Below are positions 35,552 to 63,931 of a stretch of DNA of 64,000 nucleotides, piece after piece. This DNA is from an uncultured Myxococcales bacterium (GTDB lineage Bacteria > Myxococcota_A > Polyangia > Haliangiales > Haliangiaceae). Location of the stretch: assembly GCA_942492525.1 (NCBI GenBank), contig CALOFI010000005.1, positions 1-64,000 on the forward strand. Direction: 5' to 3'. Position numbers and translations under genes: made by a program. Under the pieces are notes generated by a model, which was not told where the DNA came from, did no database searches, and saw nothing but the letters and a program-made list of their open reading frames with translations. Every line of letters begins with the position of its first letter. The stretch's first letter is position 1.

Positions 35552-37880
35552 CACGTCCTCGGCACCGTGCGCAGGCCGTCGCGGATCATGTCGGCGCTGG
35601 CGACCCGCTCGGTGGTGTCCTTGATCAGGCACGCCAGCACCAGCGCGTCGAGCTCGGCGGGGATCCCGGCGGCGAGCGTCGAGGGCGTCGGCGGCGCGGT
35701 GTGCAGGTGGTGGTACATGACGTCACCGTCGAGGAACGGTGGTCGGCCGGTGAGGAGCTCGAACAGCGTGCAGCCCACCGCGTAGAGGTCGGCGCGATGG
35801 TTGACGTCGCGGCCGGTGATCTGCTCGGGCGCCATGTACAGCGGCGTGCCGCGGATCTCGGTCTTGCGGATCGAGATCTCGCGCATGACGCGCGCCAGGC
35901 CGAAGTCGCCCAGCTTGACCACGCCGTCGTTCGAGACGAAGACGTTGGCCGGCTTGATGTCGCGGTGGATCACCTTGCGACTGTGCGCGTAGGCCAGGCC
36001 TGCGCACAGCTGATCGACGATGCGCATCGCGCTGCCGATGCCGAGGCGCCCCTGATCGGCGAGCAAGCTCTCGAGCGTGCGGCCCTCGACGAGCTCCATG
36101 ACCAGGTAGGTGTCGTCACCGTCGGACGGTTGATCGTAGACCGCGACGATGTTGGGGTGGTTGAGCTGGGCGAGCGCCTTGGCCTCCTGGACGAAGAACG
36201 ACATCGCGTCGGGGAAGTGCCGCATCTCGGCGCCCAGCGCCTTGATCGCGACGCCGCGCTCGAGGTTCTGGTCCCAGGCCCGATAGACCACGCCCATCGC
36301 GCCCTCGCCGAGCACGGCGTCGACCCGATAGCGGCCGAGCAGGACGCTGCCCGCGCCAACCGCGCGGGCCGGGCGCGGATCGCGCGCGGCCGGCGCATCG
36401 ACGATCGGCGGCGGCGCCGCCGGCATCGGCACGGTGGCCGCCGCGCCGGTCGCTTGCCCGCTCGCCGCGAAGTCGACGCGGATGCCGTGGTCGGCGGGCA
36501 ACGCCACGGTGGCGCTGCTGGCCGCGGCCGCGGCCGGCGCGGCGGTAGCCGTGGGTTGCAGGCTGAGCCCGCCGGAGACGTCGGCCAGCCGCCGCTCGCG
36601 CACCAGGTTGATCTCGAGTCGCTCGATCCTGGGCGTCGCGATCACCATCGGCCGCGCCAGCTCGATGCCGGGCGCGACGATGTGCAAGGTGTGCTCGCCC
36701 AGCGGCATCTGCAGCGTGACCTGCCCGTCGGCGCCGGTGATGACCCGCTGGCCGACCTTGTCGTCGATCCACAGCGCCACGCCCGCGCGCGGCTCGTCGT
36801 GCACGGCGATGCGCAGCTCGGCGGTGGTCGGCACCAGATCGAAGACCGCGCCCGCCACCTGGCCGCGCTTCACGGTCACGGCCTGGCTGCTCGCCTCGAT
36901 GGTGCGCACGTCCCCGCCGCGGCTGTACACGCCGTACAGGTGAACCTGCCAGCGGCCGACCCCGACCTCGTAGCGGCTGATCCGCGGGATCATCGTCGCG
37001 GCGTGTCGGCCGGTGGTCTGCCCGGCCCGACGCTGCGCCTCGCGCCAGGCCGAGGGCGCGTCGATCGTGGGCGCGCGGCCGCCGTGCGCGATCTGCAGGC
37101 ACATCACCTCGTCGGTGCCGGCCGGGTCCATCTTGACGCGGACCTCGATCACGCCCTTGCCGCGCAGCGCCCAGAGCAGGCCGAACGCGATCACGATCGT
37201 GATGAAGGTGCCGAGCAGGACCAGCGGCTCGAGGTTCCAGCCGACCAGCGCGAAGCGCGACCCGTCCAGCGTGGCAGGCACCTCGTAGGCGCGCTCGCTG
37301 CGGCCGTCCCAGGCGACCAGCTTGATCCGGGCGGTCGTCCCGTCGGCGACGACGCGGAACAGCACCACGCCAGCGGCGTCATGGCGCTTCGCCAGCGCGG
37401 CGAGCGTGGGCAGCGCCAGCGGCTCGGGCTGCGCCGGCGGCGACACCGACACGACGTCGATCCGCCAGGGGGGCCCCTCGAGCGCCGCGATCAACGCCTG
37501 GCGCAGCGGCGCCGGCCGCGCCTCGCGCAGCGCGAACCAGCCCGCCTCGCCGCCGCCGAGCAGCACCACGACCACCTTCTTGCGGCTCAGCGCCTGGAGC
37601 GCGGGCAGCTCGGCGAGCAGTGGCCGCAGCGCGTCGCGCAGGGCCGTCGCCGGTGCGGTCGCGGTCTTCGCGGTGGCGGCGACCGCGGACAGCGACGCCT
37701 CGGCCGCGCCTGCGGTGGCGCCGCCCAGCGCGATCGACGTGGCCTGGGAGCCGTCCGGATCCAGCCGCAGGGCGGTCGCGCTCGGCACGTGCGGCGCCGT
37801 CGCGATCGCCGCGGAGCTCGAGCGCGCGGCCGAGGCGCCGCTGCGCCTCCGCGGACGCCGGCGACAGCGCCACCGCCGCG
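35551..37880 (-). CDS. Transmembrane - beta-sandwich (PEGA-like) - C-terminal Ser/Thr kinase (downstream part of a frameshifted gene)
   Basis: Transmembrane helix LVLLGTFITIVIAFGLLWAL, then beta-rich domains including a PEGA-like VTLQMPLGEHTLHIVAPGIE, then the kinase (LGRYRVDAVLGEGAMGVVYRAW...AIKAL...HRDIKPANVFV...DFGLARV...GTPLYMAPE). The sensible sequence in this frame begins near 37880. Further upstream it is low-complexity. Confidence 0.6.
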
Positions 37881-61238: not shown

Positions 61239-63931
61239 GCCAGGCGTCGATCGCGGCGACGCGCTCGCCATCGCCCAGCGCCTGCCACTCGGCGCGCGCG
61301 CGCGGCGTCGCGTCGGGCCGCGGCCACGTCGCCCAGCGCGTCGCGCGCCTCGGCCAGCGCGAGCCGCGCCGCCGGCAGGCTGCGCGGGTAGCCGCCGGTC
61401 GCCTCGGCGATGCGCACCGCGCGCTCGAGCAGCGGGATCGCCGCGCGCGGCGCGCCGCCGCGCGCGGTGCCGATGCCCATGCCGGTCAGCGGGTGGATCA
61501 GATCGGCGTGGTCCGGGCCCTGGGCCCGCTCGACCGCGTCGACGGCGCGCCGGTGCAAGCCGACGCCGTCGGCCCACCGGCCGCGGGCCAGCGCGACGTC
61601 GCCGAGGTTGCCGTCGACCGCGGCCAGCTCGACGTGGTCCTCGCCGTAGACCGCCACCAGGATCCCGCGCGCCTTGCCGAAGTAGGCCTCGGCGTCGTCG
61701 AGCTGATCGCGCGACAGGTACATCGTGCCGAGGTTGTTGTACGAGCTGGCCAGCTCGCTGGAGGTCGGCTCGAGCAGCGCCTCGCGCATCCGCAGCGCCT
61801 CGAGCCGCCGGGCCAGCGCCTCGTCGAACCGACCCAGCGCGCGCAGCGGCCCGGCCTGATGATCGAGGAAGCGCGCGGCCAGCGCGGCGTTGGTGCCGCC
61901 GGTCGCCATCGCGATCTGGTAGGCCCGCTGGTAGCCATCGAGCGCGGCGGCGAAGTCGCCGGCCGCCTCGTCGAGCACGGCGATCGCGTTGGTGGTGGTC
62001 GCGATCTCGGGGTGGGTCGCGCCGTACAGCCGGGTGCGCAGGGCCAGCGTCTGCTGGTACCGCACGCGCGCCTCGGCGGTGCGGCCCAGCCGCTCGAGCA
62101 CGGTGGCCAGGTAGTACAGCGCGCTGCCGGCGAGCATCGAGTCGCCGGCGCCGAGCTCCTGCAGCGTGGCCACCGCGCGCTCGCCGTGGCGCAGGGCGTC
62201 GTCGTAGTGGCCGTCGTTGAAGCCGCGCTTGGTCAGCAGGACGTCGTGCAGCGCGCGCAGCCGCGGATCGCCGCCCAGCGCGTCGATGCTGGCGTCGGCC
62301 AGCGCGGTCAGGGTGTCGGCCGAGGCGAAGCGCTCGAAGAAGATGTCGCGCGCGGCGAGGCGGATCGCCGCCTCGGCGACGACCCGCAGGTGACCGCCGG
62401 CCTGCCCCGCGGTGACCGCCTCGAACAGCCGGGTGTCAGCGCTGTCCTCGCCGGCGTCGGCCTCGATCATCGCCTGGGTCAGCAGCGCCTCGGCCAGGAA
62501 CGGCCGGTAGCCCAGCGTGCGCGCCTCGGCGACGACGCCGCCCGCGCCGGCCAGCGCCTCGTCGAAGCGGGCCGCCGCGGCCTCGACCGCGGCCCGCGCG
62601 CGCCGCGGCTCGAGCGCGGCGAGCGCCGCGCTGACCCGGGTGTCGTCGGGCGGCGGCACGGTCGCGCGCAGCGCCGCGCCGTCGGCGCAGACCTCGAGCG
62701 GCGGCAGCGCCGCGGCGATCGCGCCGGCCCGCTCGACCGCGGCGACGTCGGCCGCGGCCAGCACGTCGACGGTGACCCGCAGCGCGGTGCGGCGCCGCTC
62801 CAGGCAGCTCATGCGCAGATCGAGCAGCGCCGGCGTCTGCTCGGGGCGGACGTGGGTGGCCTCGCACGCGGCGCGGTGCGCGGCGCGCCAGTCCGTCGCG
62901 TAGCGATCGAGCGCGGCGCCGGCGGCGTCGCCCGCGGTCGCGGCGTAGGCCACGCCGGTGGCGGTGAACGCGTCGGCGACCTCGCCGCGCCGCGCGTCAT
63001 CCCACACGCCGGACAGCCGCGCCGCGCCGCTCGCGCATGGATCGGTCGCGCCGTCGTCGAGGCGCCCGGCGAGCAGCGCCACCGCGAGCCCCGCGCCGCC
63101 CGCCGCCGCCACCACCGCGAGCCGGCCCCGCCAGCGCCGCGCCGGATCGTCCTGCAGCGCGTCGCACAGCGCGCTCATCGACGGCCAGCGCGCCGCCGGC
63201 GCCGGCGCGGCGCCGCGACTCGCGATCCGCGTCGCCCGCGCCGGCAGCGCCACCTCGGCGGCGAGCAGCGCGACGCAGAACGCGTACTGATCGCTGGCCG
63301 CCGTCGGCGGCGCGCGGTCGCGCAGCTCGGGCGCGACGTACGCGGGCGTGCCGGCGAGGTCCGCGGGCGCCCCGGCACGGCGCGCCAGGCCGAAGTCGAC
63401 GAGGCGCGCCCGACCGTCGGCGTCGATGACGACGTTGTCGGGCTTGAAGTCGCGGTGAACCAGGCCGCCGGCGTGCAGCGCGGCGAGCGCGCGGCCGGCG
63501 TCGACGAAGGCGCGGATCACCTCGCGCGCGGTGCGCGGCGCGGACCGCAACCACGCCCGCAGGCTCGGCCCGTCGACCCGCTCCATCGCCAGGTAGACGT
63601 GGCCCTGCCACGCGCCGACGTCGTGGACCGCGACCAGGCTGGCGTGGCGGACCACCGCCATCGCGCGCGCCTCGTCGAGCAGGCGCGCCGCGCCGTCGTC
63701 GCCGCCGTCGACCAGCAGCTTGATCGCGACCACCCGCTCGAGCTGCGGATCGAAGCCGGCGTAGACCACGCCCATGCCGCCCTGCCCCAGCTGCTCGCGG
63801 ATCTCGAAGCGACCCAGCCGCACCGGCTCGAACGGCTCGCCGAACAGGCGCGCGCGGGTGGCGCGGCGCACCCGCTCCGCCTCGACGGGGTCCCCGGAGC
63901 CCAGGCCGCGCACCGGCGGCGATGGTAGCAT
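61211..63931 (-). CDS. Ser/Thr protein kinase with C-terminal TPR repeat region (frameshift near 61320)
   Basis: Kinase: FEIREQLGQGGMGVVYAGFD...AIKLL...HRDFKPDNVVI...DFGLAR...GTPAYVAPE. Long TPR-like region (...LGTMYLSRDQLDDAEAYFGKA...). In an alternative frame the last residues read ...RAEWQALGDGERVAAIDAWLMDRGGPAE* and stop at about 61211, whereas the long ORF runs on to 60971 as Ser/Arg junk. Confidence 0.65.

Follow-up and report, generated by a model that had tools for sequence, protein, structure and literature searches.

The 64,000-nt window analysed here (the whole stretch of DNA under study) contains six places where the reading frame changes on the same strand without a stop codon at the change, all of them on the minus strand and in DNA of 75% GC. 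Correction by a small indel gives an open reading frame that is colinear with its orthologues at all six sites. The six switches are very probably consensus errors, each adding or dropping one base, in an assembly of low quality that is chimeric in part. They are almost certainly not a real biological feature, and their value lies in the corrected gene models.

Pattern of the frame changes

Frameshifts in this DNA are seen only when codon-position GC is combined with comparison to orthologues, because wrong frames stay open over long distances at 75% GC. Segmentation by codon-position GC was used to locate the frame changes (37805, 39626, 41688, 43740, about 45440-45540 and about 61232-61316) and homology then narrowed each of them to the interval given below for its gene. 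The six switches proposed in a first-pass annotation were all recovered in this way, 0-120 nt from the coordinates it had reported. Support for the individual sites comes from Pfam profiles that are split between frames, from full-length profiles once the frames are joined, or from end-to-end alignment with an orthologue. At all six sites the upstream frame runs on past the switch for 73-427 nt before it reaches a stop, compared with 1-32 nt at ordinary gene ends in the 75% GC part (9.1-64 kb), where the only exceptions are three small imprecise ends at 41-63 nt. The other long genes had been described as intact, which holds across 9.1-64 kb.

Each of the six genes has exactly one lesion, with neither premature in-frame stops nor a second indel, and the direction is mixed: sites 1, 3 and 6 have one extra nucleotide and sites 2, 4 and 5 lack one. 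Downstream of the breaks, GC at third positions stays at 0.93-1.0 and the C-terminal sequence conserved in the family is kept, thus the genes show no sign of decay. The affected genes are functionally unrelated. The breaks were thought to lie near 3' ends or domain boundaries, but this is only loosely true because they are found at 42-97% of the protein length and three of them are inside domains (the AAA_33 kinase, the Rossmann methyltransferase and the last part of OPT). They were also placed in G/C-rich runs. The local GC over 31 nt is indeed 77-87%, but this corresponds only to the 69th-97th percentile of the 75% background, and no homopolymer of five or more is involved at any of the six sites. 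A search for a shared motif or a long homopolymer across the six sites rendered only ubiquitous GC-rich 5-mers. Five of the six sites are clustered in a stretch of 7.65 kb, for which uniform placement gives p about 0.008. One further segment, at 49192-49511, was labelled frame -0 with no stop for 3.9 kb and was considered as a seventh candidate. It was rejected since it is a plus-strand secreted Cys-repeat gene mislabelled by the model based on third-position GC.

Corrected gene models and their relatives

The receptor-like Ser/Thr kinase (35551-39403, minus strand) has a corrected length of 1283 aa and is built up by a signal peptide, a TPR region, a transmembrane helix and a C-terminal kinase domain. 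It changes from frame -1 to frame -0 at site 1 (37765-37786, minus strand), which corresponds to the gain of one base (or the loss of two) in ...GAGCGCGACCGCCCTGCGG..., and the stop is found 427 nt past the switch. The first-pass annotation was right about the switch but its position of about 37900 was off. The joined protein aligns end-to-end with P0002 (1245 aa) at 48% identity, gap-free across residue 543. The public call, P0001, follows the wrong frame and ends after 674 aa.

The OPT-family oligopeptide transporter (39413-41445, minus strand, corrected length about 675 aa) changes from frame -0 to frame -1 at site 2 (39618-39655, minus strand). The change amounts to the loss of one base, in a stretch with both GGG and GGGG. 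The OPT profile is split between the frames (1-592 and 590-623), and after joining it is matched over 1-623 of 623 positions in one stretch at 285 bits, a higher score than without joining. Among the matches listed (40 of 44 hits), the tail is in the frame of the main match in every one. The closest OPT relative in the contig scan is only 68% identical and has no synteny beyond OPT, and is informative for site 2 only.

Sites 3 and 4 are found in a cassette of methyltransferase, RNA ligase and HD-Pnk that is widely conserved, and two of its three genes are broken here. HD-Pnk, an HD phosphohydrolase joined to a P-loop polynucleotide-kinase-like protein (41423-42617, minus strand, corrected length 397 aa), changes from frame -2 to frame -1 at site 3 (41690-41700, minus strand) by one extra base in CAG-CGGC-TTC, where the expected reading is ...RAGQR FAWNATNLS... 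The AAA_33 profile is split by the site (1-68 and 73-139) and covers 1-138 of 143 positions after joining, with the score raised to 66 bits. About 20 metagenomic relatives have ...LRAG..FAWNATNLS... in a single frame. The first gene of the cassette, the class I SAM-dependent methyltransferase (43434-44077, minus strand, corrected length 214 aa), changes from frame -1 to frame -2 at site 4 (43738-43760, minus strand) by one missing base in GTGCGCGC-GGCGGCGTC, the expected reading being ...LERVRAGGVERL... Here the Methyltransf_12 profile is split into 1-33 and 35-91, and joining gives 1-91 of 98 positions at a higher score (40 bits). Both halves are in a single frame in about 30 relatives.

The fifth gene encodes a Ser/Thr kinase with a transmembrane helix and a C-terminal PEGA-like domain (44975-46725, minus strand, about 582 aa, start ATG at 46725). 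At site 5 (45405-45472, minus strand), in the Pro/Ala/Gly-rich linker that follows the transmembrane helix, its frame changes from -0 to -1, as if one base were missing. Because this linker is unconserved the position cannot be narrowed beyond these bounds, which are set by a stop of frame -1 at 45473-45475 (upper) and by the start of the conserved beta-domain (lower). The joined kinase (539 aa in this comparison) aligns end-to-end with P0012-P0014, which cover 99-100% of it, with an invariant ...VNPF.K C-terminus common to all, and the public call, P0011, is 485 aa long. Pfam PEGA was undetected in this kinase itself, although PF08308 is present in many of the homologues. A second frameshift at about 44980-45175 was considered and rejected: the kinase ends with ...VVNPFKKKKP* at 44975, where a separate TPR gene with a signal peptide starts.

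Site 6 (61290-61312, minus strand) is located in a Ser/Thr kinase with a TPR region (61210-63931, minus strand, 907 aa after correction, with the true stop at 61210-61212), where frame -1 gives way to frame -0 through an extra base in a run of (CG)6. Residues 2-900 of the joined protein align with residues 2-899 of the 901 in P0134 at 70% identity, and many homologues among the matches listed end no more than a few residues from the joined C-terminus. The public call, P0009, is 986 aa long and reads on, antisense to the neighbouring gene, as far as 60971. A break inside the catalytic domain, suggested by a Pkinase match that reached only position 188 of 263 in the profile, was rejected because the alignment with P0134 is uninterrupted.

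At least six loci therefore have wrong gene calls in the deposited data: run-on products of 674, 485 and 986 aa that continue in the wrong frame, and a split OPT, HD-Pnk and methyltransferase. This agrees with the earlier warning that gene calls would be affected. New domain architectures, truncated kinases or overlapping genes claimed in this region would be artefacts, and the corrected models (proteins of 1283, 675, 397, 214, about 582 and 907 aa) should replace the deposited calls.

All proteins of the organism are singletons at 90% identity, with the nearest relatives being only 64-76% identical. The breaks are absent from the relatives, in that the pieces share one frame in the OPT loci listed and in the HD-Pnk and methyltransferase loci, and the orthologues P0002, P0012-P0014 and P0134 are uninterrupted. 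These comparisons bear on programmed ribosomal frameshifting or transcriptional slippage as a means of expressing the downstream parts, an explanation that is extremely improbable. Nothing specific points to it except the intact downstream frames, whereas each protein is read from a single frame in the relatives, so that a frameshift is unconserved among the orthologues, and shifts of both +1 and -1 would be required. A scan of sites 2, 4 and 5, and of the upstream-frame parts of those genes that it covered, found no zero-frame X_XXY_YYZ heptamer, and no Rfam frameshift element was found in the window. None of the six gene families is known for recoding, of which prfB, dnaX and IS transposases are established cases. 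Recoding was rejected on the basis of the heptamer scan and the comparison with relatives.

The chimeric junction and the low-GC part

An abrupt join between DNA of 47-50% GC and DNA of 75% GC is found at about 9140-9150 (region 9100-9180), with one gene cut on each side. An AAA_16 STAND-type gene from the 75% GC side, cut after about 230 aa, is fused in frame with a pepD dipeptidase that begins at profile position 46. Both sides of the junction are on the same 142,399-bp NCBI contig, which demonstrably joins two unrelated bacteria at about 9145. The first 9 kb should for that reason not be assigned to the high-GC organism. No known plasmid matches the low-GC part, and neither the Rfam scan nor the tRNA scan found anything in the window.

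The low-GC part (1-9.1 kb) has at least nine further frame breaks, several of them at short homopolymers, and the density of breaks is about 9-fold higher than in the high-GC part. For example, the pepD fragment (7824-9145, minus strand) is divided over three frames (TIGR01893 positions 46-205, 203-261 and 298-476), and one of its breaks is a change from TTT to TT at about 8620. A gene with 47-aa tandem repeats (GQYTSLALD...ISYYDETN...YAYFDG...ETVD; 5100-7000, plus strand) has units of 138-153 nt, most of them 141, and at least six frame changes. The earlier restriction of the problem to 37.9-61.3 kb and to high-GC genes thus fails. The quality of the contig is poor.

Since the contig consists of two genomes at about 9145, mixed templates were present. 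This would be in line with a collapse of co-occurring strains, where haplotype switching or mis-polishing by the assembler in a strain-heterogeneous region changes the frame, which is a sub-type of assembly error and would explain why five of the six sites are clustered. Such a collapse is very unlikely, and its practical consequence would be the same as for single-base consensus errors.

Origin of the indels and comparison with known systems

Errors in the consensus are favoured over biology because the contig joins two unrelated bacteria and has more breaks elsewhere. The first-pass annotation had regarded the switches as a likely sequence-quality issue, and the single lesions of plus or minus one base, the intact relatives, the mixed directions, the lack of a frameshifting signal and the assembly defects elsewhere all support this. 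We infer that the indels arose in sequencing or assembly rather than in the cell. The organism most likely carries six intact genes, and each consensus error would shift the apparent reading frame. Since stop codons occur seldom at 75% GC, the wrong frame stays open for 73-427 nt, and gene callers as a result yield products with false tails or split genes.

Two observations fit less well with errors. Long homopolymers are the classic error context and none of the six sites is located in one, and the clustering of five sites would have to be explained by something further, for instance coverage that drops locally.

A genuine and very recent origin of the mutations is unlikely. The genes would then be young pseudogenes of a lineage in which mismatch repair is faulty or selection is relaxed, or the changes would be variants that have become fixed in the population sampled. 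Replication slippage typically gives changes of one base in short repeats rich in GC, (CG)6 and GCGGCGGCG among them. The cluster of five sites could mark a dispensable region, and in a neighbouring CysG-like ORF the methylase domain is degenerate and shortened in a way that resembles real decay. Decaying genes, however, usually gather several lesions and lose codon bias. These signs of relaxed selection, including in-frame stops, were not found in the six genes, which have a single lesion each and a downstream codon bias that is kept. Moreover, the genes hit are unrelated and include two of the three in a widely conserved cassette, and there are clear assembly defects on the same contig. The load in the genome as a whole would also be very high: six breaks in 54.9 kb of the 75% GC part, where about 15% of the genes are hit, would imply around a thousand broken genes in a genome of 10 Mb, which seems implausible for a free-living bacterium. 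Slightly less probable still is that all or most of the six indels, perhaps together with those in the low-GC part, come from a recent burst of slippage by single bases in a Myxococcota-like organism. If so, this would indicate a hypermutator deficient in mismatch repair or early genome decay, with three receptor kinases, a transporter and two genes of an RNA-repair-like cassette inactivated within about 24 kb.

Programmed frameshifting, as in prfB (+1), dnaX (-1) and IS3 (-1), resembles the present sites in that one frame change gives a full-length product, but the changes here are unconserved, lack a slippery site, go in mixed directions and affect unrelated families. True frameshift pseudogenes also have reading frames that are disrupted in comparison with intact orthologues; they differ from the genes in this window, which have one lesion each and a third-position GC of about 0.95 downstream of it. 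The closest parallel is probably found in error-prone draft, long-read or low-coverage assemblies. Fragmentation of genes by indel errors is described for such assemblies (Kastor, PMC12007338), as is frameshift correction in Nanopore MAGs (PMC8103633). Compared with what is described there, the six high-GC sites are unusual in being outside long homopolymers. On the other hand, the density of errors differs within as well as between contig segments in the same way, the indels are isolated changes of one base in conserved open reading frames, the calls are truncated or run on, and comparison with orthologues both pinpoints and repairs the breaks (PMC12007338; PMC8103633).

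Frame changes in the high-GC part

The window consists of two parts, with approximately 47-50% GC from position 1 to approximately 9.1 kb and approximately 75% GC in the remainder to 64 kb. Long ORFs are present in all six frames of the 75% GC DNA, which makes ORF lists uninformative, and GC content by codon position was therefore chosen as the coding signal. Third positions are at approximately 0.95-1.0 and second positions at approximately 0.5, the order of the positions gives the strand, and this signal was segmented with a seven-state model that penalises stop codons. Very long spurious antisense ORFs are typical of DNA with 75% GC and are a hazard for gene calling based on ORF length; two of them, 45268-49623 (-) and 18477-24221 (-), with 1451 and 1914 amino acids, lie opposite real genes. 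A bacterial protein encoded at 21699-24164 (+) carries major-vault-protein domains (MVP_shoulder 2-118/118, Vault_3) and appears intact.

The segmentation gave six same-strand frame changes, all on the minus strand, at 37805, 39626, 41688, 43740, approximately 45440-45540 and approximately 61232-61316. These positions closely match those of six genes that, according to the first-pass annotation, require one switch of frame. At the six changes the in-frame stop is found 73-427 nt past the end of the coding signal, compared with 1-32 nt at ordinary gene ends between 9.1 and 64 kb (41-63 nt at three small imprecise ends). Within the high-GC part, segmentation and stop distance revealed no further break; complete Pfam domains are present in the other long genes, which the annotation also describes as intact. 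A flagged segment at 49192-49511 was rejected as a mislabel by the model. The true gene is on the plus strand (approximately 49307-49723); its product is small and secreted, carries a signal peptide and repeats the unit ADECVDWDxTGECxGWAG about five times, and the composition of this Cys-repeat protein caused the GC3 model to call the wrong strand.

Joining the two frames by a one-base correction restores each gene. For the receptor-like kinase (site 1, 37765-37786), residues 54-1283 of the joined 1283-aa protein align at 48% identity with the homologue P0002 (1245 aa), and the alignment crosses junction residue 543 without a gap. For the TPR kinase (site 6, 61290-61312), residues 2-900 of 907 align with 2-899 of the 901 residues in P0134 at 70% identity; the true stop is at 61210-61212, and the ends of many listed homologues are only a few residues away from the joined C-terminus (...AIDAWL...). 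The kinase with a PEGA-like domain (site 5, 45405-45472) extends from the ATG at 46725 to a stop at 44975. Its homologues P0012-P0014 cover 99-100% of the joined protein with 55-64% identity, and all have a transmembrane helix, a beta-domain and an invariant ...VNPF.K end in common; the TPR ORF below is a separate gene with its own signal peptide. The public calls for these genes, P0001 (674 aa), P0009 (986 aa) and P0011 (485 aa), continue in false frames at sites 1, 6 and 5 and are wrong, so the concern raised earlier about gene calls was justified.

In OPT (site 2, 39618-39655) the Pfam profile is matched in two pieces, 1-592 in frame -0 and 590-623 in frame -1, and the joined protein matches 1-623/623 in one stretch (285 bits). 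The tail piece was matched in 44 of 80 homologous loci, and in all 40 listed among these it follows directly downstream of the main match in the same frame. AAA_33 in HD-Pnk (site 3, 41690-41700) is likewise split into 1-68 and 73-139, becoming 1-138/143 (66 bits) when joined; the DNA, CAG-CGGC-TTC, has one base in excess, and ...LRAG..FAWNATNLS... is uninterrupted in approximately 20 metagenomic relatives. Methyltransf_12 (site 4, 43738-43760) is split into 1-33 and 35-91, joined to 1-91/98, with one base missing in GTGCGCGC-GGCGGCGTC; the two halves share one frame in approximately 30 relatives of the methyltransferase.

The corrected receptor kinase, 35551-39403 (-), has an unusual layout common to P0002, which aligns end to end: an N-terminal signal peptide, a periplasmic region of approximately 700 aa containing the TPR, a single transmembrane helix, then a PEGA-like beta region and, at the extreme C-terminus, the kinase domain. 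P0003 is close to it in length (1280 aa) and has kinase domains, but the query coverage is only 39%. A CysG-like ORF at 60351-61238 (+) with NAD_binding_7, Sirohm_synth_M and CysG_dimeriser shares 29 nt at its 3' end with the corrected end of the TPR kinase gene, to which it is convergent. Its TP_methylase domain is degenerate, with only approximately 75 residues and VGDHDDED in place of the GAGPGD motif, and may be naturally shortened; the ORF stops immediately after ...RLVRRDP.

A chimeric junction at 9.1 kb

At approximately 9140-9150 (junction 9100-9180) the GC content jumps from approximately 50% to 75% within 100 nt. One ORF, 8605-9840 (-), fuses the first approximately 230 residues of an AAA_16 STAND-type protein (75% GC) in frame to the low-GC pepD dipeptidase, whose profile match starts only at position 46 of 478, the first 45 positions being absent; both genes are thus cut at the junction. 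Both sides are found on one NCBI contig of 142,399 bp. The first 9 kb, with type IV minor pilins, pepD and four-helix-bundle proteins, is from a different bacterium.

This low-GC part has at least nine frame breaks in approximately 9 kb, several at short homopolymers; they fall in pepD, in a repeat gene, at 1436-1804 and at about 2397-2470. The pepD gene, 7824-9145 (-), is spread over three frames (TIGR01893 46-205, 203-261 and 298-476), with one break where TTT has become TT. A tandem-repeat gene at 5100-7000 with 47-aa units (138-153 nt, mostly 141) has at least six frame changes, a four-helix-bundle gene is broken, and the start of PilX is out of frame compared with a short-read contig of approximately 90% identity. 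A PilY1-like ORF, about 1-1700 (-), is open throughout and runs off the window start. The break density is approximately 1 per kb here and 0.11 per kb in the high-GC DNA, a roughly ninefold difference of the kind expected from two templates that were assembled at different depth.

Nature and origin of the six lesions

Sites 1, 3 and 6 each behave as if one base had been inserted (+1 nt), and sites 2, 4 and 5 as if one had been lost (-1 nt); this follows from the way the frame moves and, for sites 3, 4 and 6, also from the DNA. The lesions sit in short GC-rich repeats (CCC, GGG/GGGG, CGGC, GCGCGCGGCGGCG and (CG)6), which agrees in part with the G/C-rich runs initially described. However, local GC is only moderately higher than the background (69th-97th percentile), and no homopolymer of at least five bases occurs at any of the six sites, although there are 30 such runs in the high-GC part. 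The proposed location near 3' ends or domain boundaries also holds only partly: the breaks are at 42, 90, 78, 51, 73 and 97% of the protein length for sites 1-6, and three are inside domains, away from boundaries.

As read from the sequence, the six switches point to consensus errors and not to a biological feature, in line with the sequence-quality problem first suspected. This is favoured because there is exactly one lesion per gene with normal codon-position signature and protein conservation downstream, because the lesions are private to the contig and of both signs in six unrelated genes, and because the contig has independent defects. The six breaks in 54.9 kb affect approximately 15% of the genes in the high-GC part, a rate that would imply roughly a thousand broken genes genome-wide. 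Gene fragmentation by indels is documented as an artefact, according to PMC12007338 and PMC8103633. Programmed frameshifting is rejected: relatives do not share the frameshifts, shifts in both directions would be needed, an X_XXY_YYZ heptamer is absent from sites 2, 4 and 5 and from the scanned upstream-frame parts of those genes, and no Rfam element was found in the window.

Five of the six sites lie within 7.65 kb (p about 0.008). This clustering, together with plausible slippage in short repeats, speaks for genuine recent mutations in the organism, but such mutations are improbable, since each gene has a single lesion, the signatures downstream of it are intact and the contig has other defects. 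Several strains collapsed into one consensus, a variant of the artefact explanation, could also account for the clustering. With consensus errors as the preferred explanation, the value of the analysis lies in the corrected annotation and in flagging the first 9 kb as chimeric.

A methyltransferase, RNA ligase and HD-Pnk cassette

Sites 3 and 4 are located in a three-gene cassette, 41423-44077 (-), encoding a SAM methyltransferase, an RNA ligase (PF09414) and an HD phosphohydrolase with a P-loop polynucleotide-kinase-like protein. In soil and sediment metagenomes, dozens of contigs (loci L081-L151) keep this gene order. Three of these relatives have frame breaks of their own (L093:1050-1215, L095:1900-2150 and L120:1480-1700), one at a TTTT run and all positioned differently from those in the window, so such breaks are a common background in public metagenome contigs. 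The cassette looks like a putative RNA-repair module. The logic is related to that of Pnkp/Hen1, but in the cassette the predicted activities sit on separate proteins.
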